A stretch of DNA of 64,000 nucleotides from Pseudomonadota bacterium (lineage in GTDB: Bacteria > Pseudomonadota > Gammaproteobacteria > SURF-13): assembly GCA_040756035.1 (NCBI GenBank), contig JBFLZV010000003.1:11970-75969 (forward strand), read 5' to 3'. A model generated the notes under the pieces. That model saw only the letters and a program-made list of their open reading frames with translations. It was not told the origin of the DNA and made no database searches. Below, one piece after another: positions 10,978-35,653 of the stretch (position 1 is its first letter; each line of letters begins with the position of its first letter). The translations under genes were made by a program, and so were the position numbers.

Positions 10978-11696
10978 AGACCGCGCTCTTGTTGCATAAG
11001 ATAAAATTCCGCGAGCGGCAAATCCTCGGGATAGGTGATTTTAATATTATCGGCGCGTCCTTCCACGAGTGCGGGTTTGGCGCCGAGCAGAATCATGGCG
11101 GAGGCTTCATCGGTGATGGTTTTACCTTGCGCAATAACGCTCTCCAGCGCATCGAGCAACGGCCCGAAGCGAAACATCTGCGGTGTAAACGCGCGCCACA
11201 ATTTTTTTCTGTCCAATACCTTGAGCGCCCCGCCCTCCTCCATCCACATGGTATCGTTCACGCGTCCGGCGAGAAAACCGCCGTGCGCGTGCGCGGACAG
11301 CGTATGGATGAGCTTGTCGATATCGTCGCGGTGCAGGCACGGACGCACGGCGTCGTGCACCAAAACCCAGTCGCGCGCCTGTGCCAAGCCATTTAATTTT
11401 CCGAGCGCGTTTAACACCGAGTACGCGCGCTCCGCGCCGCCCTCGGCGATGAGCAACGGTTTTTCACCCATGCCGCGGACGAACAGTTTCCTTCCCTCGC
11501 CATCGTGCGCGGCCAGCGCCACGACCATTCCGGAAACGGACGGGTGATTATATAAACGCGCGACGCTGTGTTCTATAACGGTGCGGCCGTGCAACGGCAA
11601 ATATTGCTTGGGACGCGCGCCGCCCATGCGCACACCGGCGCCCGCGGCGGGCACCACCGCCCAGTAGCTCACGGGAGTTAAAGGATTCTGTGACAC
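10974..11696 (-). CDS. ispD: 2-C-methyl-D-erythritol 4-phosphate cytidylyltransferase
   Basis: AVVPAAGAGVRMG...KQYL motif; 4-nt overlap with ispF. Confidence 0.95.
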   Translation of the reverse strand: MSQNPLTPVSYWAVVPAAGAGVRMGGARPKQYLPLHGRTVIEHSVARLYNHPSVSGMVVALAAHDGEGRKLFVRGMGEKPLLIAEGGAERAYSVLNALGKLNGLAQARDWVLVHDAVRPCLHRDDIDKLIHTLSAHAHGGFLAGRVNDTMWMEEGGALKVLDRKKLWRAFTPQMFRFGPLLDALESVIAQGKTITDEASAMILLGAKPALVEGRADNIKITYPEDLPLAEFYLMQQERGL

Positions 11697-11801: not shown

Positions 11802-12617
11802 CTACGCTCCCGCCTGCGCCGCATCGTAGCCATGCACCCACTGCCGGCACTCGACCCTCCGAGCGCGGCCCTGCACGGCCAACGCGGCGGCATAACCGGG
11901 CAAATCAGGCAAGTCATGGAGCGTCCAGCGCTGTTCCTCGGCGGGATCATCTTGCGCGCCGATCACGCGCGGCGCCTCTCCCGGCGCCAGGGTGACGCTG
12001 AATTGATGCAAGGGAAAGCTCAGGCCCTTGCCCAGGGCTTTGATGTACGCCTCCTTGCGCACCCAGCAGGTAAAAAAAGCGCGCTGTCGTTGCGCCGGCG
12101 GCAACGCGCGCAGCGCGGCGATCTCGCGCGCGGAAAAAAATTGCGCGGCGATGTGCTCGTGTTCCGGTTGCGTCTGAACGCGCTCGAGATCGACGCCGAC
12201 TTCGCGCCCGCGCGCCAGCGCGCAGAGCACCACGCCGTGCGAGTGCGCGTAATTAAAGCGCACATCCGACGGATTGCATTGTTCGAGCAAGGCGGGCTTT
12301 CCGTATTCGTTGTAACCAAAGCGCAAGGCGGCGGGCGGCGTGTTTAAATAGCATCCCAGTAGCGTGCGCAGCAGCCCGCGCGCCGCGATGAATTGCGCGC
12401 GGTCTTTTTGAAAGTGAAAGCGCGCGGCCCTGGCTTGCTCATCCGCGCTTAAAAATTCCCGCCAACGCGAAACGTTGATATCACCTATATGCGCGCGCCA
12501 CACGTGCACCGTATCCGTTTCCAACATGAATCGTTGCGGAATGAGCCGCCGGAGCGGCTGTGTTGCCGACATTGTTCCGTTAACCCGCCAGCGATATGGG
12601 TGGACTGAAATCATCAT
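11802..12617 (-). CDS. Sfp-type 4'-phosphopantetheinyl transferase
   Basis: FNYAHSHGVVLCALARGREVGVDLE and WVRKEAYIKALGKG (PPTase motifs 2 and 3); directly downstream of the NRPS; alternative start at 12572. Confidence 0.85.
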   Translation of the reverse strand: MMISVHPYRWRVNGTMSATQPLRRLIPQRFMLETDTVHVWRAHIGDINVSRWREFLSADEQARAARFHFQKDRAQFIAARGLLRTLLGCYLNTPPAALRFGYNEYGKPALLEQCNPSDVRFNYAHSHGVVLCALARGREVGVDLERVQTQPEHEHIAAQFFSAREIAALRALPPAQRQRAFFTCWVRKEAYIKALGKGLSFPLHQFSVTLAPGEAPRVIGAQDDPAEEQRWTLHDLPDLPGYAAALAVQGRARRVECRQWVHGYDAAQAGA

Positions 12618-15600
12618 CGTGCACCGCTGCCGTTTCTTTTGCCTCTTTTTCCGCCTGCGCCCGCGCCGTACTGATGCAATCGCTTAGGTGCTTGGCCAAC
12701 GTACGCACTTGCGGTTCGCGGAAAATGGTAATGTGGTCACAGTCCAGGCTATAGCTTTCCACGCCGCGCGCAGCCAAGCGCTCCCATTCGCGCTGATAAC
12801 GCGCATGGCGGCGCCGCGTGATGCTCTGGCTCGCCCAAAACAAGGTAATGCGCCCGGGATAAGGGCCGGTCCGATACACCTTTTGCGCCCGCACGTCGGC
12901 GTCGAACACGTACTGCGTGCGCACGGCCTCCGGGATGGTCAAGCCCAGGGCGCGAAATAGTTTGTAGATTCCCCGCTTGCTGCTTAACCGCAATTTCTTG
13001 CCGACTTTTTCCGCAAGATACAATGCTTTTCCCTTGCCATCGAGCAAATTTAGATTATCCCAGTGTTCGCGCAATTTACTGCTGTGGGGCGCCGGCGCAG
13101 AATTGCCTTGCACACATGGGCTGGGGCTGTCGATCAGCGCGAGCAGCGCCACCTGCTGACCTTGCGCGTGAAGTTTGCGCGCCAGTTCAAAGGCGATCCA
13201 GGCGCCGAAGCAAGCGCCGCCTAGATAATACGGCCCTTCGGGTTGCAGCGAGCGTATCGCCTTGAGGTAATTTTCCGCCATGTCTTCCACGCGCGTTAAC
13301 GGCGTTTGTTTACCGTCCAGTCCGGGCGGCTGCAATCCGTAAAACGGCTGATCCGCGCCGAGATGGCGCGCCAGTTGGCGCATCCCGAAAAGATTTCCGC
13401 CCGCGCCGGTGATACCGAAGAAAATGGGCTGCGCGCCCGCGGGCTGAATCGCCACCAGCGGCGACCACGCCGGCGCGCAGCCCTCCTGGCGCAGCAGCAT
13501 GGCCAGCTGTTCGACGGTGGGCGCCTTGAATAGATCGGCCACCGGCAAATTTTTCCCGAAAGTTTTTTTGATGTGCGCAACCAAACGCACCGCCAGCAGC
13601 GAGTGTCCGCCGCGCTCGAAGAAATCGTCGCGCACGCCGATATTGCGCACACCCAGCACCTTTTCCCATATTCTCGTGAGCTGCAACTCCAAATCGTCGC
13701 GCGCGGCCATGTACGTGGACCGCTGCCCCGTCTCCTCCGATCCCGGCAAGGCGTGCTTATCGACCTTGCCGTTGGGGGTGAGCGGCAGGGCCGCGAGGGG
13801 CAACAGGTATTGCGGCAACATGTACGCCGGCAGTTTGCTTTGCAGGTAGGCGCGCAGCGCCTCGGTGTCGCACGCGGCGCCGGCGCGGGGTACGACGTAG
13901 GCGGCGAGGTGTTTGTCGCCGGATGGCTCGTGGCGCGCCACCACCACGCTCTCGCGCACCGCCGGATGTTGCGCGAGCACCGCTTCGATTTCGCCGAGCT
14001 CGATGCGGAAGCCGCGGATTTTGACTTGCCGGTCGCGCCGCCCGAGAAACTCGATGACGCCGTCGGGCCGGTAACGCGCCAGGTCGCCGGTTTTGTAGAG
14101 ACGCTGCCCCGGCGCGTAGGGATGCGGGATGAATTTTTCCGCGGTCAAGTCGGGCTGGTTGAGGTAGCCGCGCGCCAGGCCGTCGCCGCCGATGTACAGT
14201 TCGCCGGGCACGCCGAGGGGCACGGGGTGCAGGCACCGGTCGAGGAGGTAGACGTGGGTGTTGGCGATGGGCCGGCCAATGGGGACGCCGCCGGTTAGGG
14301 GTTGGTCGCGCGGGATGCGGTAACAGCAGGTGAAGGTGGTGTTTTCGGTGGGGCCGTAGCCGTTGATGAGCTGGCAATCGGGAAGATGCTGCAACACCTT
14401 TTGGGCGTGCGGGACGGACAAGACGTCGCCGCCGGCCAAGAGTTGACGCACGGGCTTGAGGGCGTCGAGGCGTTCGTCGACCATTAAATGGAACAGGCCG
14501 GCGGTGAGCCAGAGGATGCTGACCTGGTGCCGGCGCAGAGTTTCGCCGAGCAATTCCAGGGACGGGGTTTGATCGGGTAATAGGACTAAGCGGGCGCCGT
14601 TGAGCAGCGCACCCCAGATTTCGAACGTGGAGGCGTCGAAGGTGAGGGGGGCGGCTTGCAGGAATACGTCGGTGGGGCAAATGTGGACATAGTCGGTGTT
14701 TTTCACCAAGCGCACGACGCCGCGCTGGGGGACGAGCACGCCCTTGGGTTGGCCGGTGGAGCCGGAGGTGTAGAGGATGTAGGCGAGGCTGTCGGCGCTG
14801 GCCTGGCTTACCGGGTTGTGGTCGGGGTAGTGCTGCTGCAAGCTCGGCCAGTCGCTGTCGAGACACAGAGTCGGCACGATACTATCGGGAAGGCGCGCAC
14901 GCAGGTGCGCCTGGGTAAGCAGTAATGTAATGCCGGCGTCTTGCAGTATGAAGCGTTGCCGTTCGGCGGGATACGCGGGGTCGAGCGGGACGTAGGCGGC
15001 CCCGGCTTTGAGGATGGCGACGAGGCCGACGAGCAGGTCGAGCGAGCGTTCCAGACACAGGCCGATGCGCACTTCGGGGCCGGCGCCGTGGGCTTGCAGG
15101 TGGTGGGCGAGTGCGTTGGCGCGCTGGTTGAGTTCGGCGTAGGTGAGCTGGGCGTGTTCATGGACGAGGGCCACGTGGTCGGGGGTGGCCGCGGCTTGTT
15201 GTTCGAAGAGTTGCGCGAGCGTGGCGTCGCGCGGGTAGGGGGTGGCCGTGGCGTTCCCATCGTGCAGCAGGGCTTGGCGCTCCTCTTCGGTGAGTAAGGC
15301 CAGTTCGCTTAGGCGCTTGCCGGGGTGGGCGGAGAGGTCGTCCAACAATACACTAAAATGATCGCATAAGCGCGCGATGGTCGCCGTTTCGAACAGATCC
15401 GTGTTGTATTCGAACGTGACGGTCAATTCCGAACCCGCTTCTTCCGCCACGAATAACGTCAGATCGAACTTTGCCGTTTGATTGTTGACGTTCAACGGCG
15501 TCAGCGTCAGACCCGGAAACTGCACCGTTTGCCGGGTATTGCTTTGCAGGACGAACGCCACTTGAAACAGCGGCGTGTGACCGAGGTTGCGTCCCGGCTG

Positions 15601-16740
15601 CATCGCCTCGACCAACTCCTCGAACGGCAATTCTTGATGATCGTAAGCTTCCAGCGCCGTTTCACGCACGCGTTGCAACGCCTCGCTGAAACTCGGGTCG
15701 CCGGAAAGATCGGTGCGCAGCACCAGCGTGTTGAGAAAAAAACCGATCAGCCCCTCGACTTCGAGCGACAGGCGATTGGAAATAGGCGAGCCGACGATGA
15801 TATCGTCTTGGCTCGTATAGCGATGCAACAACACCTTGAACGCCGCGAGCACGGTCATGAACAAGGTTGCGCCATGGCGTTGACTCAACGCGGCGAGCGC
15901 CTTGCCCAGCGCGGCGGGCAGGCGCCGCGTATACACTCCGCCGCGAAAAGTCTGCATGGCGGGGCGCGGGTGATCGGCTGGCAGTTCCAACATCGACAGT
16001 TCACCGCGCAATTTATTTTTCCAGTAGGCAAGCTGCCGCTCGCGCACGCCCTCTTGCAGGCGTCGCCGCTGCCAGCACGCGAAATCGGCATACTGAATGG
16101 GCGGATCGGCGAGCGGCGCGGCGACGCCGCGCCGGTAGGCGTCGTACAGCGCCGCCATTTCGCGCTTGAGAATGTCGCGCGACCACAGGTCGAACACGAT
16201 GTGGTGCACGTTGAGCAGCAGCACGTGTTCCTGCGCGCCGGCGCGCAGCAGCGTGGCGCGCAGCAGCGGGCCGCGCGCCAGGTCGAACGGCCGGGATGCC
16301 TCCTGGGCGGCGCGGCGCTCGATTTCGGCGGCGCGTGTGTTTTCCGGCGCGTGACTCAAATCGATGACGGGCAATGTTATTTCGCGCGGTGGATGGATCA
16401 CTTGCCGCGGTTCGCCGTCCACGTTTTCAAACGTGCTGCGCAGCGTCTCGTGGCGGCGCATAACTTCGCTGAGCGCGCGTTGCAGCGCGGCGACGTCGAG
16501 CGCGCCGTGCAGTTTCCAGGCGTCGAATACGTTGTACAGGGCGCTGTCCGGGTGCCACTGCTCGAGAAACCATAAGCGTCGTTGCGCGAACGACAGCGGT
16601 GCGTCATCGCCCGCTGCGCGCGGCGTAATGCGCGGCGCCGGCGTCGCTGCGACACCCTGCTCTTCCAGTAACAAGGCAAGCAGCTCTTCTTGCGCGCTGT
16701 TCAAATCCGCCGTGCCACTCCCTTTCATCTCCGCACTCAC
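12580..16740 (-). CDS. NRPS termination module C-A-T-TE (TE with GxCxG)
   Basis: C domain (HHIVFDLWS), A domain (LTYAELN, YTSGSTGQPKGV, NGYGPTENTT, YKTGDLARY, GRRDRQVKIRGFRIELGEIE, LPNGKVD), PCP (FFERGGHSLLAVRL), TE (GITGAGGN...LGGACFGAW); likely start MKGSG/GTG ~16728-16740 after an RBS GGAGGAGAG. Confidence 0.9.
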   Translation of the reverse strand: MSAEMKGSGTADLNSAQEELLALLLEEQGVAATPAPRITPRAAGDDAPLSFAQRRLWFLEQWHPDSALYNVFDAWKLHGALDVAALQRALSEVMRRHETLRSTFENVDGEPRQVIHPPREITLPVIDLSHAPENTRAAEIERRAAQEASRPFDLARGPLLRATLLRAGAQEHVLLLNVHHIVFDLWSRDILKREMAALYDAYRRGVAAPLADPPIQYADFACWQRRRLQEGVRERQLAYWKNKLRGELSMLELPADHPRPAMQTFRGGVYTRRLPAALGKALAALSQRHGATLFMTVLAAFKVLLHRYTSQDDIIVGSPISNRLSLEVEGLIGFFLNTLVLRTDLSGDPSFSEALQRVRETALEAYDHQELPFEELVEAMQPGRNLGHTPLFQVAFVLQSNTRQTVQFPGLTLTPLNVNNQTAKFDLTLFVAEEAGSELTVTFEYNTDLFETATIARLCDHFSVLLDDLSAHPGKRLSELALLTEEERQALLHDGNATATPYPRDATLAQLFEQQAAATPDHVALVHEHAQLTYAELNQRANALAHHLQAHGAGPEVRIGLCLERSLDLLVGLVAILKAGAAYVPLDPAYPAERQRFILQDAGITLLLTQAHLRARLPDSIVPTLCLDSDWPSLQQHYPDHNPVSQASADSLAYILYTSGSTGQPKGVLVPQRGVVRLVKNTDYVHICPTDVFLQAAPLTFDASTFEIWGALLNGARLVLLPDQTPSLELLGETLRRHQVSILWLTAGLFHLMVDERLDALKPVRQLLAGGDVLSVPHAQKVLQHLPDCQLINGYGPTENTTFTCCYRIPRDQPLTGGVPIGRPIANTHVYLLDRCLHPVPLGVPGELYIGGDGLARGYLNQPDLTAEKFIPHPYAPGQRLYKTGDLARYRPDGVIEFLGRRDRQVKIRGFRIELGEIEAVLAQHPAVRESVVVARHEPSGDKHLAAYVVPRAGAACDTEALRAYLQSKLPAYMLPQYLLPLAALPLTPNGKVDKHALPGSEETGQRSTYMAARDDLELQLTRIWEKVLGVRNIGVRDDFFERGGHSLLAVRLVAHIKKTFGKNLPVADLFKAPTVEQLAMLLRQEGCAPAWSPLVAIQPAGAQPIFFGITGAGGNLFGMRQLARHLGADQPFYGLQPPGLDGKQTPLTRVEDMAENYLKAIRSLQPEGPYYLGGACFGAWIAFELARKLHAQGQQVALLALIDSPSPCVQGNSAPAPHSSKLREHWDNLNLLDGKGKALYLAEKVGKKLRLSSKRGIYKLFRALGLTIPEAVRTQYVFDADVRAQKVYRTGPYPGRITLFWASQSITRRRHARYQREWERLAARGVESYSLDCDHITIFREPQVRTLAKHLSDCISTARAQAEKEAKETAAVHDDDFSPPISLAG
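14738..15340. repeat. 603-bp direct repeat copy 1 (C-A linker to core A3 of the A domain), 602/603 identical to 18187-18789
   Basis: Base-by-base comparison of the two stretches; identical 150-aa and 118-aa ORFs in the track (14808..15260 = 18257..18709; 14941..15297 = 18390..18746). Confidence 0.95.
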
Positions 16741-16742
16741 GA

Positions 16743-19700
16743 CTACTCTCCTCCAGCCCGTTTGATCGCCCGCCGCTGCGCCAACTGGGCGCGCACCGCT
16801 TCCGGGCTGAGTTGAGCGACCTCGGTATACAAGCGCGCGCGTGCCTCGAGGCGGGCTGGGTCGGAGACCGTCGCGGTGAGCCGCGCGCATAAGGCGCTCA
16901 CGGAGGGAGCCTCAAACAGGGTGCGCACCGGCACGCTCACCCCCAACGCCTCACGCAGCCGCGCCAACACCTGGATGGCCAGCAACGAGTGTCCGCCGAG
17001 CGCGAAGAAGCCGCTGTGGCGGTCGATTTGCCCGCGGCCTAATACTTGCGCATAGAGCATGGCGATGACCTGTTCGATAGGACCCTCGGGGGCCGCGCCG
17101 GGGACGGGCATAACGCTAGCCTCTACAGGCGGGGCCGGTAAGGCGTTGCGGTCGAGTTTGCCGTGACGGGTAAGCGGGAGCTGGGGCAGGCTGACATAAG
17201 CGCTTGGCAGCAAGTACTCGGGCAGGCGCGCGCTAAGGTGAGCGCGCAGGCTCGCCTCGTCCGGCTTGTCGCCGTCGCGCGCGACGATATAAGCCACCAG
17301 ACGCGCGTCGGCTGCTCCCGGACTCTTGCCCTGCGCGATAATCGTGCGTTCCCGCACATCGCCGGGCGCGTCTTCGCGTACGCTGACGGCGGCGGCTTGC
17401 ACGCCCGGGTGGGTCTGAAGGAGAGCCTCGATCTCGCCCAGTTCGATACGGTAGCCTCTGAGTTTGACTTGGCCGTCCAGGCGCCCGAGATATTCCAGCA
17501 TCCCGTCGGAGCGGCGGCGTACGCGGTCGCCGGTTTGGTAAAGCCGTGCCCCCGGCTGGTAGGGGTCAATCACAAAACGCTGGATGGTGAGATCGGGGCG
17601 ATTGAGATAGCCACGTCCGACCCCCGTCCCGCCGATATAGAGTTCGCCCGCCACGCCCACGGGCACGGGCTGGCGCTCTGCGTCAAAAATGCGTAGGCCG
17701 ACATGCGGGAGGGCGTGGCCGAGGTGTGGGGTGCTGCCGGGGGTGAGGCGCGCGAAGGTAGCGTCCACGGTGCATTCGGTGGGACCATAGAGGTTATAGG
17801 CGGCCCAGTCGGGACAGGCGGCAATCGCCTCCCATAGACCGGACACGAGGGCCTCGCCGCCGATGAGCAGGCAGATTGGGCGGTAGGTGTCCGGGGCGAG
17901 CAGGCCGGCCTGGGTGAGCAAGGTAAGCTGGGTCGGCGTGGTATCGAGGACGTCGATGCGCGCCGTGGCAAGGTACTCCAGCAGGGCCGCGCCGTCCGGG
18001 CGGCAGGCCTCGGGCACCAGGCACAGGGTGTGACCGCTCAGCAGTTGCAGCCATTGTTTGACGGAAGTGTCGAAATAGATCGGACCGTTGAGGCTCACGC
18101 GCAGAGGTCGCGCGGGCGCGAGGTCGTGATAGACGGTATCGGCCAGGGCCTGGTGCAAATGAACCAGAGCGCCGTGTTCGATCATGACGCCCTTGGGTTG
18201 GCCGGTGGAGCCGGAGGTGTAGAGGATGTAGGCGAGGCTGTCGGCGCTGGCCTGGCTTACCGGGTTGTGGTCGGGGTAGTGCTGCTGCAAGCTCGGCCAG
18301 TCGCTGTCGAGACACAGAGTCGGCACGATACTATCGGGAAGGCGCGCACGCAGGTGCGCCTGGGTAAGCAGTAATGTAATGCCGGCGTCTTGCAGTATGA
18401 AGCGTTGCCGTTCGGCGGGATACGCGGGGTCGAGCGGGACGTAGGCGGCCCCGGCTTTGAGGATGGCGACGAGGCCGACGAGCAGGTCGAGCGAGCGTTC
18501 CAGACACAGGCCGATGCGCACTTCGGGGCCGGCGCCGTGGGCTTGCAGGTGGTGGGCGAGTGCGTTGGCGCGCTGGTTGAGTTCGGCGTAGGTGAGCTGG
18601 GCGTGTTCATGGACGAGGGCCACGTGGTCGGGGGTGGCCGCGGCTTGTTGTTCGAAGAGTTGCGCGAGCGTGGCGTCGCGCGGGTAGGGGGTGGCCGTGG
18701 CGTTCCCATCGTGCAGCAGGGCTTGGCGCTCCTCTTCGGTGAGTAAGGCCAGTTCGCTTAGGCGTTTGCCGGGGTGGGCGGAGAGGTCGGCGAGCAGCGT
18801 CTGGTAGTGCCGCGCCCAGCGTTCGATGGTCGCGGCGTCGAATAGGTCGGTGTTGTAATCCCATTGTACGCGGAACTCGCTGCCCGTCTCGACGATGTTC
18901 ACCTTGAGATCGAAGTTAATATTCTTTTTCGGATTACTGCGAGCTTCCACGTGCAAGTCGTGGAACATTAGATGATCCTGTGCATAATCCACGTTGAACG
19001 TCACCGTGGTAAGCGGCGTTCTGCCGGGATCGCGCGTGACGTTGAGTTTCTCCAGTAAACTCCCGTACGTGTAGTGTTGATACTCATGAATATCCAGAAC
19101 GGCGGCCTTTATCTCTTTTAGAAAGTCGGCTGCTTTTTTCTCGCCCATCACGGGTCGCCGCAGCGGTAGAAAATTCACGCAGTGGCCGACCAGACTGTCG
19201 CCGCTTACCGGAATTTGCCCGGCGGCGGGAATGCCGACCACGATGTCTTCCTGCCCGCTCATGCGATGCAGGAAAACCTCAAACGCCGCCAGCAACATGC
19301 AGAATAACGTGCAACTATGCCGCATCGCCGCGCGCTTTATATCTTGATAAAGTGGTTGCCCGATACTGAAAACATAGCGCGCGCCGTTATAAGTGAGCAC
19401 GGGAGGACGCGGGCGGTCAGTGGGCAACTCCAGCGCCGCAACCGGTTCGGAAAACTGTTGCACCCAGTAAGTCTCGGCGGCGACGCGCTCCGGGCTTTGC
19501 GCCTGCTCTGCTTGCAGGCGTGCGTACTCGCTGAATTGCATGGGCGGCGCCAGCGCCGCGTCCGTGCCCGTGCACGCCGCCGCGTAAAGCGCGCCGAGAT
19601 CGCGCAGCAGCACGCCCACCGACCAGCCGTCGCACACGATATGATGCGCGGTAATGAGCAAAAAGTGATGCAAATCTTCCAGCTTCACCAAGTGGAAGCG

Positions 19701-22700
19701 CAACAGCGGGCCGGTGGTGAGATCGAATGCGCGCCGCACATCGTGCTCCACCAGTGCGCTCATTTTCTCGGCACGCTGCTCCGCATTCAAATTAGAGAAG
19801 CCTAGAATCGGCACCTCGGCGGTCATCGTCGGCAGAATTTCCTGATAATCGCCCTGCGCGCTGAATACGGTGCGCAACGCCTCGTGGCGCGCGACCAAAT
19901 TTTGCACGGCCTCGCGCAGCGCGGCGTTGTTCAACGGGCCGCGCAGATGCAGCATCAGGGAATCGTTGTAACAACACGATGCCTCCTCGCCCAGCTGCGC
20001 GGCGATCCAAAGTTCCTTCTGAGGTCCGGTCAACGGCAAGCGCACCGGCTCGCGCGCCTCGGCGCTTCGCGCGATCTCGCGCCGCACCGGCTGCGGCGAG
20101 TCGGCCTCCTGCTCCGCGGGCTCGGGGAAAAATCCGCCCGCCTGCATTTCCGCAATGCTTTCCTTGAAGGCGCGGATGATTCGATCGATGTCCTCGTCGC
20201 TGTGCGCGGTGGAAAGAAAGCACGGGCGGCCTTCCCAAATGTGGATACCCTTGTCGCGTAAATGATAAAAAAGCAGGCCGGCGAATTTTTGCTCGCCCTC
20301 GAAGTGCACATAGAACATGGAGCTGAAATGTGTGATGCGCACGGGTGCTTGATGTGCACGGAAATAATCGTTGAGCACCGCGGCCAAAGCCGCCGTTTTG
20401 CGATTCAACTGCTCCTGCAAACCGGGCCCGCTGCGTTTCAAGTGTTCGAGCACCGCGCGCGCCGCGGTCAAAGCGAGAGGATGGCGCACGAAGGTGCCGG
20501 CAAAGAACGTCACGCCGACCTCCGGAAACGAGTTGTCTCCGTAATTCCACGCGCCGCCGTCGAAGGCGTCCAGATAACGCGCCCGCCCCGCCAACGCGCC
20601 GATGGGCATGCCGCCGCCGATCACCTTGCCGTAGGTGGCGAGGTCGGCGCGCACGTCGAACAGCGCCTGCGCGCCGCCGGGATGCGCGCGGAAACCGGTG
20701 ATGACTTCATCGAAGATGAGCGCCGTGTCCGAGGCCGCGGTCAGGCGCCGCACCTCTTGCAGAAATTCCCTGGGTTGCAAATCGGGATGCCGGCTCTGCA
20801 CGGGTTCGACCAGCACGGCGGCGAGTTGCGGGCCGTGCTTTTTCAGCAACGCGAGCGACGCGGGCGCACCGTACTCCAAAACCAGCACGTCCTGCACCAT
20901 GTGTTCCGGTATGCCGGGCGCTATCGGCAGCGGGCGCGAATGTCCGCCGCGCGTGGACGCGCGCACCAGCACTTCGTCGAAAATGCCGTGATAAGAGCCG
21001 GCGAACAACGCGATTTTGTCGCGCCCGCTGACGGTGCGCGCCGCACGCAGCGCCGCCATCACCGCCTCGGAACCGGTGTTGCAAAAAATCGCGCGCTCCA
21101 TGCCGGTGAACGCGCACAGCGCTTCCGCGACTTTGCCGGCCAGCGGCGAAGTCGGCCCGATTTCCATGCCCGACTCGAGCTGATCCTGCAACGCCTCGGT
21201 GACGAAAGGCGGCGCATGGCCGAATAGATTGACGCCGAAGCCCATGGTCAAGTCGATATACTCATTGCCGTCCACGTCCCAAATTTTGGAGCCGGACGAA
21301 CGCGCGGCGACGATCGGATAAACCATTTCCTTCCATTGCAAACGAAATCCAGAAACCGCGCGCGGGTCGCAAAAATGCGCGCGGTGCGCCTTGGTGTAGC
21401 GCTTGGACTCCGCGGTGCGCCGCGTATAGCGCCCGATCAACGCCCCCAAGTGTTTTTGCTGACGCGCGTTGAGGCCGCCGCCGATTCCTTTTTCAATGGG
21501 CTTGTAAGGGCCAAAGGGCTTACTCTCCGCGCGCGCTTCCCGCACCGTGTGCCGCGCCATGCTCGCCGGCGCGCCCACGTCGGGCGCCGCAGCCTCGGCG
21601 TTTCCGGCCTTGCCCCAGAGTGCGGCGCTGCGGCGCAACTCCTCCAATTGTTTTTCAATGAGCGCCAATTGCCGCGCCACGGCGTCGGCCTGCGGTTGCG
21701 CGGGAGCGGTTTTCTCCGAGGCGGAATCGGATACTTCATCCTCGCGCAACGCCTCGGTCGGCAAGGAACGATCCAGGTAGCCCGCCAGCGCTTCCAGCGT
21801 GGCGGATTCCTCCAGCAGTTGGCGGAACGGAACTTTCACGTTGAATTTTTTTTGCAGCGCGTGGCTGATCTGCGTGAGAAACAGAGAATCAAAGCCCATT
21901 TCCAAAAACGTCGTGGTGGCGCCGATGGCGGTTATGTCCAACCCCGACAATTCGCTCAAAGCCTCTTGCAGCATCGGCAGCAGCTTTTCCCGCCGGCTGA
22001 ACGACTTTTTTACACTCGTTTCAATCATTTGTTCCTCAAGCATGACGCCCTCCTCGCACTCTTCTCCCTTAATGATTTTTTGTGCAACTCTATTTTTTGC
22101 GCGCGGCGGTTCCACCCAGTAATGTTTCCGCTCGAACGCGTAACCGGGCAATGGCACGCGCCGCCGCCGCTCATGCGCGTGAAATTGCGTCCAATTAACC
22201 GTCGCGCCGGTCAACCACAACCGGCCCACGGCATCCAGCAAACAAGCGATGTCCGACCGATTATCCTGTGCGGCGCGTGCCGAGGTGATAACGGATTGCT
22301 CGGCGCGCTTGGCGGGATGCTGGCGCGCCAGCGTGCTCAGTGTTTGTCCGGGGCCGACTTCCAAAAGAACGTGTTCGGTTTTGTTCAGCAGCGTTTGCAA
22401 GCCGGCGGCGAAACGCACGGTGTGGCGCATGTGCCGCACCCAGTACTGCGGATCGGTCGCCTGCGCGGCGTCGATCCACGTTCCGGTGACGTTGGAGACG
22501 TAGGGAATCTGCGGGGGATGCAGGGCAACTTTGCGCAGTTGTTCGAGAAACGGCGCGAGGATCGGCTCCACCATCATGGAGTGGAAGGCGTGCGAGGTGT
22601 GCAGGCGCCGGTGCACGATTTCTTCCTTGGTGAGCCGCTCTTCCAGCGCCTCGATCGCGGCGTTCGGACCGGACACGACGCACAGCGCGGACCCGTTCAC

Positions 22701-24740
22701 CGCCGCCAGGCACAGTTCGCCGCCCAGCAACGGCTGCACCGTCTCTTCGTTCACACGCACGGCGAGCATGGCGCCGCCGGGCAAACTTTGGACGAGCCGC
22801 GCCCGCTCCGCCAGCAAGTTGAGCGCGTCGTGCAGCGTAAGCACGCCCGCCAGGCAAGCCGCCGTGTATTCGCCGAGGCTGTGTCCGATCATGGCCTGCG
22901 GCCGCACGCCCCACGCCATCCATAGTTTGGCGAGCGCGTATTCCACCGTGAACAGCGCCGGCTGCGTGATCCAGGTTTGTCCTAGCAGCTTCCGCGCCTG
23001 TTCCGTTTGCTCGGCGGATGGATACAATACGCTGCGCAGGTCGAGGCCCAGCAACGGTTGTAATAATTCCGCGCAGGCGTTGACGTGTTCCTGGAACACC
23101 GGCTCGCTCTCGTACAGCTCGCGGCACATATCGACGTGCTGCGCGCCCTGTCCAGGAAACATGAAGACCACCGGCGCCTGATCGTGCACGGCGACGTGCG
23201 TGGCCATGCGCGCGGCGTCATCCGCGCGCAAGATTCGTAGCGCGTCCGCCGCGTCTTGGCACACCAACATGCGCCGATGCGCATAGTGCTTGCGTCCGGC
23301 GTGTAACGTAAACGCGGCGTCGGCAAGATTAACTTCGGGTTGGCGCTCCAAATGTTCGGCCAGGGCGTCGGTCGTCGCATTCAGCGCGGCGGCGGTTTTC
23401 GCGGACAAGGTCAACACTTGCCAGGGCCGCGTCGCCTGCGCCGCGGCCGGCGCGGGCGCCTCTTCCAGCACTACGTGCACATTGGTGCCGCCGATGCCGA
23501 ACGAACTCACGCCGGCGCGGCGCGGCAATTTATCCGTGCGCCACTCGCGCAGTTCGGAGTTGACGTAGAACGGACTGTTGGCGAAATCGATTTTCGGATT
23601 AGGCTGCTCGAAGTGCAGGCTGGGCGGCAACATTTTGTGATGCAGCATCAAGGCGGTTTTAACCAATCCGGCGACGCCCGCCGCGATGTCCAAATGCCCG
23701 ATGTTGGTTTTCACCGAGCCGATGGCGCAAAAGTTTTTCTCCTGCGTCGCAACACGGAAGGCCTGTGTGAGACCGGCGATTTCTATGGGATCACCGAGCG
23801 GCGTGCCGGTGCCGTGCGCCTCCACGTAGGTGACGGTGTCGGGCTCGACGCCGGCCACGGCCTGCGCCATCGTGATCACCCGCGCCTGGCCGTCGATGCT
23901 CGGCGCTGTGTAGCCGGCCTTGAGCGCACCGTCATTGTTGACGGCGCCGCCCTTGATGACGGCCCAGATATGATCGCCGTCGGCCATGGCGTCGTCCAAT
24001 CTCTTCAGCACCACCGCCGCGGCGCCCTGCCCGCCCACCATGCCCTGCGCCTTGGCGTCGAACGCGCGGCAGTGACCATCGCCGGAATAGATGCCGCCTT
24101 CCTGGTACAAGTGGCCGCGCTTTTGCGGAAACGATATGGAGACGCCGCCGGCCAACGCCATGTCGCACTGGTAATCGAGCAGACTTTGGCAAGCGCTGTA
24201 CACCGCCACCAGCGACGTGGAGCACGCGGTCTGCACCGTCATGCTCGGACCTTGCAAATTCAACTTATAGGAAACGCGCGTGGCGAGAAAATCCTTGTCG
24301 TTGGCGATGATGGGCGCCAATCCGGTCAGGCTCCGGAATTTCGGATGCGGATACAGATTATGCAGCAAGTAGCTGTTCGTGCCGGCGCCCGCGTACACGC
24401 CTATCAATCCGGGGTAAGTATCCGGATCGTAACCGGCATTCTCCAAGGCATGCCAGCAGCATTCCAAAAATACGCGCTGCTGCGGATCGATGATCTCCGC
24501 TTCCCGGGGTTGATAGCCGAAGAACGCCGCGTCGAATGCGATGGCGTCGTCCAGCACGGCGCGCGCGCGCACGTAGTTCGGATCATGAATGAGCGCGTCA
24601 TCCACGCCGGATTCTTCCAGCTCCTGCGCAGTAAAAAATCTTACAGATTCCTTGCCGCCTTGCAGGTTGCGCCAGAATTCCTCAATATCGTTCGCGCCGG
24701 GAAATCGTCCGGCCATGCCGATAATGGCTATCCCTTCCAT
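16743..24740 (-). CDS. hybrid PKS-NRPS: KS-AT-ACP-aminotransferase(AMT)-C-A-T
   Basis: KS (TACSTSLVA, EAHGTGT, HLDIAAG-type), AT (GHSLGEY, HAFH = malonyl-specific), ACP (LEMGFDSLF), class-III aminotransferase domain (GSEAVMAALRAAR, KVIGGGMP; the PLP Lys lies in the latter), C (HHIVCDGWS), A, PCP (FFALGGHSLLAI). Confidence 0.9.
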   Translation of the reverse strand: MEGIAIIGMAGRFPGANDIEEFWRNLQGGKESVRFFTAQELEESGVDDALIHDPNYVRARAVLDDAIAFDAAFFGYQPREAEIIDPQQRVFLECCWHALENAGYDPDTYPGLIGVYAGAGTNSYLLHNLYPHPKFRSLTGLAPIIANDKDFLATRVSYKLNLQGPSMTVQTACSTSLVAVYSACQSLLDYQCDMALAGGVSISFPQKRGHLYQEGGIYSGDGHCRAFDAKAQGMVGGQGAAAVVLKRLDDAMADGDHIWAVIKGGAVNNDGALKAGYTAPSIDGQARVITMAQAVAGVEPDTVTYVEAHGTGTPLGDPIEIAGLTQAFRVATQEKNFCAIGSVKTNIGHLDIAAGVAGLVKTALMLHHKMLPPSLHFEQPNPKIDFANSPFYVNSELREWRTDKLPRRAGVSSFGIGGTNVHVVLEEAPAPAAAQATRPWQVLTLSAKTAAALNATTDALAEHLERQPEVNLADAAFTLHAGRKHYAHRRMLVCQDAADALRILRADDAARMATHVAVHDQAPVVFMFPGQGAQHVDMCRELYESEPVFQEHVNACAELLQPLLGLDLRSVLYPSAEQTEQARKLLGQTWITQPALFTVEYALAKLWMAWGVRPQAMIGHSLGEYTAACLAGVLTLHDALNLLAERARLVQSLPGGAMLAVRVNEETVQPLLGGELCLAAVNGSALCVVSGPNAAIEALEERLTKEEIVHRRLHTSHAFHSMMVEPILAPFLEQLRKVALHPPQIPYVSNVTGTWIDAAQATDPQYWVRHMRHTVRFAAGLQTLLNKTEHVLLEVGPGQTLSTLARQHPAKRAEQSVITSARAAQDNRSDIACLLDAVGRLWLTGATVNWTQFHAHERRRRVPLPGYAFERKHYWVEPPRAKNRVAQKIIKGEECEEGVMLEEQMIETSVKKSFSRREKLLPMLQEALSELSGLDITAIGATTTFLEMGFDSLFLTQISHALQKKFNVKVPFRQLLEESATLEALAGYLDRSLPTEALREDEVSDSASEKTAPAQPQADAVARQLALIEKQLEELRRSAALWGKAGNAEAAAPDVGAPASMARHTVREARAESKPFGPYKPIEKGIGGGLNARQQKHLGALIGRYTRRTAESKRYTKAHRAHFCDPRAVSGFRLQWKEMVYPIVAARSSGSKIWDVDGNEYIDLTMGFGVNLFGHAPPFVTEALQDQLESGMEIGPTSPLAGKVAEALCAFTGMERAIFCNTGSEAVMAALRAARTVSGRDKIALFAGSYHGIFDEVLVRASTRGGHSRPLPIAPGIPEHMVQDVLVLEYGAPASLALLKKHGPQLAAVLVEPVQSRHPDLQPREFLQEVRRLTAASDTALIFDEVITGFRAHPGGAQALFDVRADLATYGKVIGGGMPIGALAGRARYLDAFDGGAWNYGDNSFPEVGVTFFAGTFVRHPLALTAARAVLEHLKRSGPGLQEQLNRKTAALAAVLNDYFRAHQAPVRITHFSSMFYVHFEGEQKFAGLLFYHLRDKGIHIWEGRPCFLSTAHSDEDIDRIIRAFKESIAEMQAGGFFPEPAEQEADSPQPVRREIARSAEAREPVRLPLTGPQKELWIAAQLGEEASCCYNDSLMLHLRGPLNNAALREAVQNLVARHEALRTVFSAQGDYQEILPTMTAEVPILGFSNLNAEQRAEKMSALVEHDVRRAFDLTTGPLLRFHLVKLEDLHHFLLITAHHIVCDGWSVGVLLRDLGALYAAACTGTDAALAPPMQFSEYARLQAEQAQSPERVAAETYWVQQFSEPVAALELPTDRPRPPVLTYNGARYVFSIGQPLYQDIKRAAMRHSCTLFCMLLAAFEVFLHRMSGQEDIVVGIPAAGQIPVSGDSLVGHCVNFLPLRRPVMGEKKAADFLKEIKAAVLDIHEYQHYTYGSLLEKLNVTRDPGRTPLTTVTFNVDYAQDHLMFHDLHVEARSNPKKNINFDLKVNIVETGSEFRVQWDYNTDLFDAATIERWARHYQTLLADLSAHPGKRLSELALLTEEERQALLHDGNATATPYPRDATLAQLFEQQAAATPDHVALVHEHAQLTYAELNQRANALAHHLQAHGAGPEVRIGLCLERSLDLLVGLVAILKAGAAYVPLDPAYPAERQRFILQDAGITLLLTQAHLRARLPDSIVPTLCLDSDWPSLQQHYPDHNPVSQASADSLAYILYTSGSTGQPKGVMIEHGALVHLHQALADTVYHDLAPARPLRVSLNGPIYFDTSVKQWLQLLSGHTLCLVPEACRPDGAALLEYLATARIDVLDTTPTQLTLLTQAGLLAPDTYRPICLLIGGEALVSGLWEAIAACPDWAAYNLYGPTECTVDATFARLTPGSTPHLGHALPHVGLRIFDAERQPVPVGVAGELYIGGTGVGRGYLNRPDLTIQRFVIDPYQPGARLYQTGDRVRRRSDGMLEYLGRLDGQVKLRGYRIELGEIEALLQTHPGVQAAAVSVREDAPGDVRERTIIAQGKSPGAADARLVAYIVARDGDKPDEASLRAHLSARLPEYLLPSAYVSLPQLPLTRHGKLDRNALPAPPVEASVMPVPGAAPEGPIEQVIAMLYAQVLGRGQIDRHSGFFALGGHSLLAIQVLARLREALGVSVPVRTLFEAPSVSALCARLTATVSDPARLEARARLYTEVAQLSPEAVRAQLAQRRAIKRAGGE
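18187..18789. repeat. 603-bp direct repeat copy 2 (inside the A domain of the hybrid gene)
   Basis: See copy 1; single mismatch near the 3' end. Confidence 0.95.
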
Positions 24741-24774: not shown

Positions 24775-30192
<5,418 letters not shown>

Positions 30193-30649: not shown

Positions 30650-33600
30650 TCAGCGCGTTCGTTCATTGCGCGCAACCGCCTCCGGATGTTCGCGGCGCGC
30701 CCGCAAGGCCGCGTCGATACGGCGCGCCAGATCGGCCAGCGTAGGCGTTTCAAAAAACGTGCGTAACGGAATTTCCACGCGCAGCGCGGCGCGCAGCCGC
30801 GAGATAATTTGCGCGGCGTGCAGGGAATGGCCGCCTAATTCGAAGAAATTATCGTGCCTGTCAATGTGCGCCAAGCCCAGCACATCCTTCCAAATTTCTC
30901 CCAGTGCGTTTTCCAGCGCGCCCTCTAGAAAATAGTCGGAAGCTCGATGCTGTTTGGGGGGTGGCAAAGCGTGATAATCCACTTTACCGTTGGGCAGACG
31001 CGGCAAGGCGTCCAGCACCACGAACAACGGCGGCACCATGTGTTCGGGCAGCGCGCGCCGCGCGAAACTGCGCAACTGCGCAACCAGCAAATGGCGGCTG
31101 TCATCGACGACGCCGGACGTTGCCGGTTTGTTGGCGTAGTCACTCCAATTTTTACGGCGCACCGCTTCCGGCTCGAATCGGAACACCGGCCGCCGGACGT
31201 ACTGCATTCTCTTGCGCTGCAACAGCACGTCGAAGCAGTCGAGATGCGCGTCGCCCGACCATGTAATGCTCGCCTGATAACCTAATTCTTCACCCAGCGC
31301 CCATAAGTCTCCGGGCTCCACGCCGATCTCACGCGGCGACTCCTGTAATATTTTGCGCAATTCGCCCGCGTTCGCGGTGATGGCGTCCGCCTCCAATAAT
31401 TCCAAGGCCTTCACCTCACTTAGCAGACGTGCATTGGGAACATGCTTGATGCCCAGGGTGTCTGTACTATTTTCCGCCAGCAGCCGGCGCAACGCCGCAA
31501 TCGTCAAACCATGTTTCCGCCAGTCCAGCCACGTGATATACAACGCGTGGGAGGACGATGCCCCGATGTGCAGCATCACATCATATTTGAAGCGCGTGAT
31601 TTCATTGTGGCAGCGCCCGCCTTTGAGCTGCATCTCCACGTGGCTAATCTTGGGCAGACGCTCGGCCAGTGCATTAAACAAGGCGGGGTCGACGGCCAAG
31701 TCCTTTTCGCGCGCCAAGTGTTCCTGTACGAGTTTACATAGATCGGCCTTGGTCGTTGCAGGCGGGGCAAGCCGCATCTGCACCGAGGCGTGAAACACTT
31801 TCAGCAACGGCAAACTGCGAATGCCGCCGAGAAACACCACGCCGCCGGGCTTGACGTGTTCAACGGCGTTTTCCAAGACGTTGATAAGATATTCCACGCC
31901 GGGGAAGTGCTGCACGACCTCATTGATAACGACGACGTCAAACTTCTCGACCCCGCACGCCACCGCTTCATGCGCCGCCTCGTGCAGCAGTGTCAACGTA
32001 GCGAATTTGGCGGGACGCGTCGCCATACGCCGCTGCAGGCGCTCGATGGCCACGGAGGAAATGTCCGTGCCGCAATAATGTTTACAATGCGGACCGATTC
32101 TGTCCAGCAGTAAACCAGAGCCGCAGCCGATCTCCATAACGCGCGCGGGTTGCAGCGCCAGAATACGCCGCGCGGTATCGTCCACGCATTCGGTAATCTC
32201 CTCCAGCGGCAGCGCCTCGCGCGTATAACTACTGATCCAAATTTTTAAATTAATCGCCGCGTCCGTTTGCAAAAAGTCCTGGTCCTGACCGTAAAGATCG
32301 TCATACATGGCGCGATATTGTTCGACGTGGCGCACGTCCTCGCCACCCTTGTATTTCGGTTCGTCCACGGCATCGGCGCACAGCGGGAACTTCGGCGCCA
32401 CGTATGCCACCAAGCGCTTGTCGCCGAGCGTATCCTCGCGCACCATCACCGCGGCCTCGCGCACCGCGTCGTGTTCATGCAGCACGGCCTCGATCTCGCC
32501 CGGCTCGATCCGATAACCGCGCAGCTTTACCTGGCGGTCCATGCGGCCTATAAACTCCAGATCGCCGCTCGGCAAGTAGCGCGCCAGATCGCCCGTTGCA
32601 TACAAACGCGCGTCCGGTGCGGAGCTGAACGGATCGGCGATGAATTTCTGCGCGGTCAAATTGGGCTGGTTAAGATAACCGCGCGCCACGCCCGGCCCGC
32701 CGATGCACAGTTCGCCCGCCGCACCCTCCGTCACCGGGCGGTGTTGTGCGTCCAGCAAATAAATGCGCGTGCCGGCCGGCGCGCGGCCGATGGGCACCGG
32801 CGTCTTGGCATCGTGCCGACGGCAGTCATACACACTGCACCACACCGTGCCCTCGGTGGGCCCATATTCATTGAACAACGGCGTTGCGCCCAACGCCGCG
32901 CGGTGCCGCTCCACCAATTTGATCGGGCAGACTTCCCCCGCCACGACCACCGTGCGCAGCGAAGTTAGTGCGTACGTCTCCGCATGTTCTAAAATGTGCT
33001 CATAGAAAACCGGCAGGCACAGCAGGTGCGTAATCCGGCTCTGTTCGATTGTGCGCGCAACATACGCGGGATCACGTTGCAGATCGGGAGTCAGTAGGAA
33101 CAGCGTCCCACCTTGGCACAGTGTCCAGTAAATGCCTGCCACCGAACTATCGAAAGCGAATTGCGAGAGCAACAGGAAGCGCGCGACCGGGATTTTGTAA
33201 TAATCCAACCGCGCGCGCGTGGAGTATGCAAGGTTCTTGCGCGTGATTAGCACGCCCTTGGCGCGCCCCGTCGATCCGGACGTGTAAATAACATAGGCGA
33301 GATTTTGCGCGTGCGCGGCGTCGGAAATATTTTCCGCGCTCTCGCGATTGATTGCGGACATCGCGGCGTCGAGTTGCACGATGCATCCACCGAAACGCGG
33401 GAAGCGCCCGCTCATGGCCGCGCCGGTGAGCAACAGCGATGCGCGCGCGTCTTCCAGCATCCAAGCCAGACGCTCATGCGGATATGCCATATCCAGAGGC
33501 AAATAGGCCGCGCCGCTTTTTAGAACGCCGAGCATACCGAGCAGCATATCCAGCGGGCTATTCAAGTAAAGCGCCACCAGCACATCTGGGCCGGCGCCCG

Positions 33601-33757
33601 CCTTACGCAAGTGGCGTGCAATTTGATTGGCGCGCCGGTTCAACGCGCCGTAACTGACGGATTCTTGTTCGAATACTAAGGCGATAGCATCGGGTGCGCG
33701 CGTCGCCCGCGCCTCGAACCAACGCAGCACGCATTGATTTTCCTCATCGGCGCTCAT
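30650..33757 (-). CDS. free-standing NRPS initiation didomain A(N-methyltransferase inserted)-T
   Basis: A domain core motifs (LSYGALNRRAN, YTSGSTGRAKGV, NEYGPTEGTV, GRMDRQVKLRGYRIEPGEIE ... LPNGKVD) with a ~500-aa insertion between A8 and A10 containing the SAM motif VMEIGCGSGLLLD; C-terminal PCP FFELGGHSLHAAQI; no C domain. Confidence 0.9.
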   Translation of the reverse strand: MSADEENQCVLRWFEARATRAPDAIALVFEQESVSYGALNRRANQIARHLRKAGAGPDVLVALYLNSPLDMLLGMLGVLKSGAAYLPLDMAYPHERLAWMLEDARASLLLTGAAMSGRFPRFGGCIVQLDAAMSAINRESAENISDAAHAQNLAYVIYTSGSTGRAKGVLITRKNLAYSTRARLDYYKIPVARFLLLSQFAFDSSVAGIYWTLCQGGTLFLLTPDLQRDPAYVARTIEQSRITHLLCLPVFYEHILEHAETYALTSLRTVVVAGEVCPIKLVERHRAALGATPLFNEYGPTEGTVWCSVYDCRRHDAKTPVPIGRAPAGTRIYLLDAQHRPVTEGAAGELCIGGPGVARGYLNQPNLTAQKFIADPFSSAPDARLYATGDLARYLPSGDLEFIGRMDRQVKLRGYRIEPGEIEAVLHEHDAVREAAVMVREDTLGDKRLVAYVAPKFPLCADAVDEPKYKGGEDVRHVEQYRAMYDDLYGQDQDFLQTDAAINLKIWISSYTREALPLEEITECVDDTARRILALQPARVMEIGCGSGLLLDRIGPHCKHYCGTDISSVAIERLQRRMATRPAKFATLTLLHEAAHEAVACGVEKFDVVVINEVVQHFPGVEYLINVLENAVEHVKPGGVVFLGGIRSLPLLKVFHASVQMRLAPPATTKADLCKLVQEHLAREKDLAVDPALFNALAERLPKISHVEMQLKGGRCHNEITRFKYDVMLHIGASSSHALYITWLDWRKHGLTIAALRRLLAENSTDTLGIKHVPNARLLSEVKALELLEADAITANAGELRKILQESPREIGVEPGDLWALGEELGYQASITWSGDAHLDCFDVLLQRKRMQYVRRPVFRFEPEAVRRKNWSDYANKPATSGVVDDSRHLLVAQLRSFARRALPEHMVPPLFVVLDALPRLPNGKVDYHALPPPKQHRASDYFLEGALENALGEIWKDVLGLAHIDRHDNFFELGGHSLHAAQIISRLRAALRVEIPLRTFFETPTLADLARRIDAALRARREHPEAVARNERTR

Positions 33758-34079: not shown

Positions 34080-35653
<1,574 letters not shown>

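Follow-up and report, generated by a model that had tools for sequence, protein, structure and literature searches.

A hybrid polyketide-peptide synthetase gene with a MycA/McyE-type aminotransferase module, predicted to aminate a two-carbon-extended peptide intermediate

We are concerned here with a single long gene at positions 16743 to 24740 of the window, by which we mean the whole stretch of 64,000 nucleotides taken from contig JBFLZV010000003.1 of assembly GCA_040756035.1, a metagenome-assembled genome (MAG) of an uncultured Pseudomonadota bacterium. The open reading frame (ORF) lies on the minus strand, opens with an ATG and runs through 2,665 uninterrupted codons. Its product is a hybrid of a polyketide synthase (PKS) and a nonribosomal peptide synthetase (NRPS), and it is one of five co-oriented genes that form a cluster of about 22 kb. 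An earlier account of this DNA, made from its letters and translations and called the sequence-only reading below, had placed at these coordinates a module composed of ketosynthase (KS), acyltransferase (AT), acyl carrier protein (ACP), aminotransferase (AMT), condensation (C), adenylation (A) and thiolation (T) domains, in that order. Pfam annotation confirms both the coordinates and the order, to which we add the strand. The domains are as follows, the last carrier being called the peptidyl carrier protein (PCP) and residues (aa) being numbered along the protein.

16743..24740, minus strand: hybrid PKS-NRPS gene, KS-AT-ACP-AMT-C-A-PCP, 2,665 aa (ORF, translation, Pfam, NCBIfam)
23607..24737, minus strand: KS domain, aa 2-378 (PF00109/PF02801), with the catalytic motifs TACSTSL (Cys173), EAHGTGT (His309) and NIGHL (His349)
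22206..23168, minus strand: AT domain, aa 525-845 (PF00698), with GHSLGE at aa 619-624 and HAFH at aa 717-720
21777..21977, minus strand: ACP, about aa 922-988 (limits approximate), with GFDSL and S951 (second PP-binding stretch; motif)
20121..21464, minus strand: AMT domain, aa 1093-1540, with K1372 (codon 20625-20627) and D1344 (PF00202; PDB 6KFM; motifs)
18714..20039, minus strand: C domain, aa 1568-2009, with HHIVCDG (PF00668)
17157..18656, minus strand: A domain, aa 2029-2528, with the Glu-like code DTKDLGLVDK (PF00501/PF13193; code reading)
16878..17069, minus strand: PCP, aa 2558-2621, with GGHSL, followed by a C-terminal tail of ~45 aa (PF00550)

The N- and C-terminal ketoacyl-synt families match residues 2-378 (6e-74 and 3e-42), and they are followed by the KS-AT linker families over residues 380-507 and by Acyl_transf_1 over residues 525-845 (1.6e-53). 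Two copies of PP-binding are listed between the AT and Aminotran_3, the latter at residues 1141-1505 (2.4e-53). Condensation then matches residues 1568-2009 (6e-100), AMP-binding with AMP-binding_C residues 2029-2528, and a further PP-binding copy residues 2558-2621. The carrier serine motifs lie at 949-953 in the ACP and at 2582 in the PCP, the C-domain motif at 1699-1705, and the A-domain motif YTSGSTGQPKG at 2174. The gene is thus real and intact, with all of its catalytic motifs present, and its KS is complete, as the sequence-only reading had held.

That reading had also called the AT specific for malonyl units, and had stated that the protein has neither reductive domains nor an acyl-ligase front end. 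The pair of motifs GHSLGE and HAFH marks malonyl specificity in AT domains. Both were located here, the active site being of the form GHSxGE and the second motif being HAFH rather than YASH, and the AT is accordingly of the predicted malonyl type. No ketoreductase (KR), dehydratase (DH) or enoylreductase (ER) family was matched anywhere in the 2,665-aa protein by the Pfam scan, and there is no room for such domains, as the AT and the serine of the ACP are only about 100 aa apart. At the other end, the N-terminus MEGIAIIGMAGRFPG is the start of the KS itself, and upstream of the gene the frame is ended by a stop codon. An acyl ligase with its ACP is not present in the protein, and the genes upstream are of the NRPS and FkbH types rather than encoding a fatty acyl-AMP ligase (FAAL). 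Both absences are therefore borne out by Pfam. We also considered the gene as an iturin-family subunit A, that is, an orthologue of MycA or ItuA, and rejected this identification, since the acyl-ligase/ACP N-terminus that takes up a long-chain fatty acid in such subunits is missing.

The stretch between the ACP and the C domain is the part of the protein on which its interpretation turns. The sequence-only reading had described it as an inserted class III aminotransferase, to be compared with MycA and to be given up if it lacked the lysine that binds pyridoxal phosphate (PLP) or proved to be a linker. When the region is compared with all PDB sequences, its top match is the AMT of MycA (PDB 6KFM/6KFU), over the whole domain, with E = 9e-154 and 516 bits; the best glutamate-1-semialdehyde aminomutase (GSAM) scores ~193 bits. 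By BLASTP the region is 52% identical to MycA over 451 aa. The region is a PLP domain of fold-type I, class III (GSAM-like; PF00202, 2.4e-53), and its matches to the hemL-type families of NCBIfam fall below the equivalog cutoffs. K1372, within YGKVIGGG (1370-1377), aligns with the Schiff-base lysine of both MycA (TYGKIIGGG) and GSAM (TLGKILGGG), and D1344, within FDEVITGF (1343-1350), aligns with the conserved pyridine-binding aspartate. The alignment also leaves a 12-residue gap in GSAM opposite GGAWNYGDNSFP of the AMT, an insertion that MycA has in common with it and that a survey of PLP domains describes as characteristic of AMT domains built into assembly lines (PMC3870968). The biochemistry of MycA, summarised in the same survey, has the amine pass from Gln, via PLP, to an ACP-bound beta-ketothioester (PMC3870968).

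Given the two scores, the degree of identity, the aligned lysine and aspartate and the shared insertion, we regard the region as a bona fide AMT of the MycA type and not as a linker; the linker reading is refuted by the alignment, in which the PLP lysine is kept. It might still be supposed that the region serves as a structural spacer, or as a GSAM-like aminomutase, and that the beta-keto group is kept, since the Aminotran_3 and hemL families that it matches take in aminomutases as well. We consider this highly improbable: besides the margin of MycA over GSAM and the presence of lysine, aspartate and insertion together, the region sits between ACP and C domain exactly as in MycA. It follows the ACP of a KS-AT-ACP unit without KR, DH or ER, and the gene thus shows, at the level of sequence, every feature that we looked for in an AMT module of the MycA/McyE type. 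The built-in AMT should accordingly be one that makes a beta-amino acid, here from a peptide intermediate extended by two carbons.

What the KS extends depends upon the neighbouring genes. The remaining four genes of the cluster, in the order of transcription and with the PKS-NRPS gene falling between the second and the third, are these:

30650..33757, minus strand: stand-alone A(nMT)-PCP, with a methyltransferase (nMT) domain between A8 and A9, code DSALVAEVWK (Pfam; translation; code reading)
24775..30192, minus strand: FkbH-PCP-C-A(Thr)-PCP, called FkbH-NRPS below, with DCDQT and code DFWNIGMVHK (TIGR01686; Pfam; code; start as in locus L081)
12580..16728, minus strand: C-A(Val)-PCP-thioesterase (TE), code DAFWLGGTFK, TE Cys in GGACFG (codon 13210-13212) (Pfam; translation)
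11802..12617, minus strand: Sfp-type phosphopantetheinyl transferase (PPTase), last gene of the cluster (PF01648 + PF22624)

Together the genes hold six carrier domains, four A domains and three C domains. The FkbH domain scores 281.7 bits with TIGR01686 (cutoff 146.65), has the haloacid dehalogenase (HAD) motif DCDQT at aa 255, and is directly followed by a PCP with its serine in GGDSL at aa 692. With a second PCP at its C-terminus, the upstream gene is indeed the FkbH-NRPS ending in a PCP that the sequence-only reading had described. The gene probably starts at ATG 30192 (MKTEG...) rather than at TTG 30276; in the near-identical public locus L081 it is called at 1,805 aa, with a start equivalent to ATG 30192. 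The gene downstream of the PKS-NRPS gene, listed at 12580..16890, most likely starts at ATG 16728 (MKGSG...), and therefore does not overlap the PKS-NRPS gene. The spacer between the A(nMT)-PCP gene and the FkbH gene (30277-30649) measures 373 nt, or 457 nt if the start is 30192, and has about 49% GC. It contains a terminator-like hairpin at 30536-30508 (minus strand), 3' of the A(nMT)-PCP gene; that gene may accordingly be transcribed on its own or have been acquired separately. No MbtH-like or other small gene and no decayed C domain was found in this spacer, and the cluster contains no C domain before the FkbH domain, nor a remnant of one.

Homologues of the PKS-NRPS protein place the module in a broader setting. 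A search of 5.8 billion proteins gave one entry that is 100% identical (P0001, from the MAG). Roughly half of the 120 best matches (about 59, by hand count) share the complete domain set, including the AMT, and span 92% or more of the query at 44-54% identity; many of these full-length matches are 2,600-2,700 aa long. With the AMT region as query, a scan of 185,579 species-representative genomes gave a best match of 63% identity, in a Pedosphaera MAG, and yielded neither a close relative with a name nor a known producer. In the same set, A-T is fused directly to KS-AT-T-AMT-C-A-T in Nostoc, Acidobacteriaceae, Spirosoma, Pedobacter and Polyangiaceae. An AMT module with amino-acid or peptide priming is thus a frequent genomic architecture, and not one peculiar to the window. 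A Pseudomonadota MAG (L007, 4380-14443) has FkbH-T fused directly to KS-AT-T-AMT-C-A-T, an order in which extension and transamination would act on the glyceryl unit itself.

The neighbourhoods of five homologues reveal a conserved orphan family of clusters, consisting of an A-PCP gene of ~660 aa, a KS-AT-ACP-AMT-C-A-PCP gene and a C-A-PCP(-C-A-PCP)-TE gene. Its members are found in Pedosphaera parvula Ellin514 (L083) and in the metagenomic loci L082 and L085-L087; one member lacks the A domain and has C-PCP-TE. We found no report of a product of this family. In L083 (6981-10004) the A-PCP loader has a sulfotransferase domain (PF13469) fused to it, which is unusual in a loading module. In three members, genes for a DUF6714 protein and an MFS_3 (EntS-like) transporter lie directly upstream of the loader (L085 4789-6610, L086 4895-6698, L087 4942-6772). 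Neither gene occurs in the cluster of the window; in those three loci they hint at an exported, possibly metal-binding product.

The sequence-only reading had proposed that the KS receives its chain from the C-terminal PCP of FkbH-NRPS, and three kinds of evidence support this. The stop codon of FkbH-NRPS lies only 34 nt from the start of the KS gene. The C-terminal tail of FkbH-NRPS, RDRAQRQRAALAARR (after the PCP, ...VRDRAQRQRAALAARRAEGRL), fits the pattern DRAR(K/R)Q(R/Q)xALAxRR, with which the A-PCP loader directly upstream of the KS gene ends in four homologous clusters (ERARQQKEALARRK, DRARRQQEVLARQR, DRARKQREALANRR and DRARKQRQALASRR); the tail of the A(nMT)-PCP protein, ALRARREHPEAVARNERTR, does not fit it. 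Finally, many relatives have A-T fused directly onto KS-AT-T-AMT. The KS is 53-68% identical to those KS domains of relatives that stand directly behind a PCP or T domain, as against 43-47% for those behind an acyl-ligase/ACP or PKS modules, although phylogeny confounds this contrast. In the sister clusters the A domains of the loaders have codes for amino acids and keep Asp235; the code is that of Val in L082 (DALWLGGTFK) and Ala-like in L083 (DLFNNALVYK). Because of the spacing, the tail motif and the pattern of KS similarity, we favour FkbH-NRPS as the KS donor, and we accept with moderate confidence the collinear arrangement in which its PCP would prime the KS.

The residues that the cluster would incorporate are suggested by its A domains. 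Specificity codes were read by hand against the GrsA numbering, with a script as a partial check; three positions were set through the anchors Pro281 and NxYGPTE. The second code, DFWNIGMVHK, agrees exactly with the classical Thr signature, and the fourth, DAFWLGGTFK, with the classical Val signature. The first, DSALVAEVWK, shares 7/10 positions with the His code DSELTAEVCK, and we call it His-like; the third, DTKDLGLVDK, shares 8/10 with the Glu code DAKDLGVVDK, and we call it Glu-like.

The C domain that follows the AMT is the outlier among the three of the cluster, with 37-40% identity to the other two in pairwise BLASTP, as compared with 53% between those two. This divergence fits a donor that arrives on a PKS ACP. 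The terminal TE has Cys as its nucleophile (GGACFG), as do the TEs of the closest cluster relatives, L001, L082 and L083; relatives from Bacteroidota and Acidobacteriota have Ser. Its best solved match is AB3403 (PDB 4ZXH), with E = 4e-19 and the motif GGWCFGG. We considered a TE of the ObiF1/SulM type, which would form a four-membered ring. ObiF1 and SulM, which make beta-lactone and beta-lactam rings, have a Cys nucleophile, and SulM has a Gln-Cys-Asn motif (PMC11298585). The motif here is GACFG, and AB3403 is the closest of 37 PDB matches. Since neither ObiF1 nor SulM is among those matches, we rejected this type and infer no four-membered-ring chemistry.

Taken together, these features suggest the following assembly line. 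The FkbH domain would put a glyceryl unit on its PCP, and the C-A(Thr)-PCP module of the same protein would form glyceryl-Thr-S-PCP. The KS would accept this glyceryl-Thr chain and condense it with malonyl-ACP to give a beta-keto thioester. Because the module has no KR, DH or ER, the keto group should survive to be aminated by the cis AMT, the donor probably being glutamine, by analogy with MycA. The product of this step would be 3-amino-4-(glyceramido)-5-hydroxyhexanoyl-ACP, in other words a vicinal 3,4-diamino unit. The divergent C domain would then join the carboxyl of the diamino unit to a Glu-like residue on the PCP, the downstream protein would add Val, and the Cys-nucleophile TE would release the product, either by hydrolysis or by cyclisation via the free beta-amine or a hydroxyl. 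A macrolactam closed through the free beta-amine is speculation, by analogy with the iturins. The Sfp-type PPTase of the cluster would activate the six carrier domains. To this whole collinear scheme, from the FkbH-NRPS chain through KS, AMT, Glu-like residue and Val to the TE, we assign a probability of roughly 0.7.

Several points weigh against the scheme. The Glu-like and His-like codes agree with the reference signatures at only 8/10 and 7/10 positions, and inference also underlies the choice of donor for the KS, the source of the amine, the stereochemistry and the mode of release. The cluster has two loading units, A(nMT)-PCP and FkbH-PCP, and only three C domains; strict collinearity therefore leaves one carrier-bound unit without a condensation partner. 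In addition, the KS of the sister family is fed by a stand-alone A-PCP, and a stand-alone A-PCP exists here as well. The fifth point, a perfect repeat within the cluster, is taken up below.

In a different assignment of the starters, the KS would be primed by A(nMT)-PCP carrying an N-methylated His-like residue, and the glyceryl-Thr of FkbH-NRPS would be joined elsewhere, for example to the new beta-amine. Such an order would reproduce the closest cluster family, [stand-alone A-PCP][KS-AT-ACP-AMT-C-A-PCP][C-A-PCP-TE], and would give a role to a protein that otherwise has none assigned in the cluster; a free beta-amine is also a plausible acceptor of a second chain. We nevertheless think it unlikely. 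It is FkbH-NRPS, and not A(nMT)-PCP, that bears the loader tail motif; A(nMT)-PCP is set apart by the spacer and the terminator-like hairpin, while FkbH-NRPS stops just short of the KS start; and there is no spare C domain to attach a second chain. Priming by FkbH-NRPS remains our preferred reading.

The repeat concerns the A domains. A perfect direct repeat of 578 nt (14738-15315 = 18187-18764), which extends to 603 nt with one mismatch, stretches between the C-A linker and the A3 core motif in the A domains of the PKS-NRPS gene and of the downstream TE gene. A third copy, 81% identical, lies in the FkbH-NRPS gene (26153-26452). The two A domains that share the perfect repeat have different specificity codes. 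Judged from sequence, the repeat looks like the result of recent recombination or gene conversion between A domains which spared the part that confers specificity. A perfect repeat within a cluster from a MAG also means, however, that the module count could be an artefact of assembly. The module might then be as annotated and the real cluster different, with a module duplicated, lost or swapped through the repeat in the MAG assembly, or the cluster might be silent or decayed. The length of the repeat, which exceeds short-read k-mers, and the MAG source of the sequence speak for this possibility, as does the fact that the 2,665-aa protein has no exact record in the contig index, though a 100% identical cluster representative exists. 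On the other side, all four large ORFs are uninterrupted and their catalytic motifs intact; the upstream genes recur in a second public assembly, GCA_049322975.1, with domains 100% identical and in the same order, and a PKS-NRPS of 2,665 aa is called there too; and near-identical N-terminal segments of A domains are a common result of recombination among NRPS genes. We therefore judge it quite improbable that the real cluster differs from the annotated one or is inactive, and keep the collinear scheme.

If the scheme is extended to the relatives, the PKS-NRPS gene and the orphan family would share a cis AMT whose beta-keto thioester substrate stems from an amino acid or a peptide, not from a fatty acid or a polyketide, and would yield small 3,4-diamino-acid peptides released by a Cys TE, possibly strained macrolactams or metal binders. 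The idea of a metal-binding product comes from the EntS-like MFS gene in the three sister clusters L085-L087. We offer this generalisation tentatively, and at somewhat less than even odds. A literature search found no characterised cis AMT that acts on an amino-acid-derived beta-keto thioester, the cases found being primed by fatty acids or polyketides, although one may exist beyond the literature searched; nor did that literature hold a description of a residue of the 3,4-diamino-5-hydroxyhexanoate type made by a PKS-AMT route.

If the scheme is right, the cluster yields a short glycerate-capped peptide containing a 3,4-diamino-5-hydroxyhexanoate unit, and it would provide a first entry point to the many related orphan clusters of Verrucomicrobiota, Bacteroidota, Acidobacteriota, cyanobacteria and Pseudomonadota. 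The AMT is a well-known type of enzyme, its logic is textbook and its architecture is abundant in public data. Since every catalytic step has a well-studied precedent, we see the cluster as a candidate for heterologous expression rather than as a conceptual surprise. Its remaining interest lies in the uncharacterised family to which it belongs, the predicted vicinal diamine unit, the Cys TE and the extra starter module.

The cluster occupies positions 11802-33757, between ftsB (34080-34352) and ispD (10974-11696), in the same orientation as the housekeeping row around it. On one flank are bamA, lpxD, lpxB, rnhB, dnaE, accA, tilS, pyrG, kdsA, eno and ftsB; on the other are ispD and ispF, followed by surE and an M23/LysM peptidase gene. 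These flanks form a textbook housekeeping row of the gammaproteobacterial type. Because ftsB, ispD and ispF are normally adjacent, the ~22-kb cluster looks like an insertion at the ftsB-ispD junction. No tRNA, integrase or integration marks were found at the cluster borders, and the island does not differ from the flanks in base composition. Apart from one partial Logan fragment (206 aa, enolase cluster), the clustered collection contains no relative more than 90% identical to the housekeeping proteins. Beyond ispF lie a HAMP-GGDEF-EAL gene (7654-9696, plus strand), of cyclic-di-GMP turnover, and an Smr-domain gene (9734-10321), both apparently unrelated to the cluster.

It remains to compare the cluster with known systems, beginning with its two ends. 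The start of FkbH-NRPS resembles the FkbH loading of vioprolide and corramycin, in that an FkbH/HAD domain, a carrier and then a C domain stand at the start of an NRPS, and an N-terminal glyceric acid is expected. In those two pathways the order is FAAL-ACP-C-FkbH-T, and the C domain attaches an acyl group to the glycerate as an ester (PMC10099666). A C domain thus precedes the FkbH domain there, and none does so here. The terminal TE resembles that of AB3403, a C-A-PCP-TE protein of Acinetobacter baumannii, in having a Cys nucleophile within the same motif, although AB3403 belongs to another pathway.

As regards the cluster as a whole, the orphan family is the nearest comparison. It holds the closest full-length homologues among the best matches, with 48-51% identity over 98-100% of the length and sizes of 2,650-2,691 aa, and it has in common with the cluster here the core of three genes, the tail motif of the loader encoded ahead of the KS gene and, in L001, L082 and L083, the Cys TE. 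It differs in that the loader of the family is a plain A-PCP of ~660 aa, whereas FkbH-PCP-C-A(Thr)-PCP stands in the loader position here; in that the code of the A domain following the AMT is Gly-like in the family and Glu-like here; and in that the cluster of the window has an extra A(nMT)-PCP gene and no transporter gene.

Among characterised systems, MycA of the mycosubtilin pathway of Bacillus subtilis has the same KS-AT-ACP-AMT-C-A-PCP order without reductive domains, and the same chemistry is expected. MycA, however, starts with an acyl ligase and an ACP, and its KS extends a fatty acid, whereas the protein studied here begins at the KS and is predicted to extend a glyceryl-threonyl chain. 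The KS domains of the MycA-like loci L006 and L008 are only about 47% identical to the KS here, and the A domain of MycA is for Asn where ours is Glu-like. McyE of the microcystin pathway, with its counterpart in the nodularin pathway, comes closer in layout: it too starts at the KS, follows the order KS-AT-ACP-AMT-C-A-PCP and has a glutamate-type residue next. Its KS is fed a polyketide, the Adda precursor, by the ACP of a PKS, and it carries an extra C domain at its C-terminus. The layout of the gene is thus that of McyE, with an incoming chain that is predicted to be peptidyl rather than polyketide.

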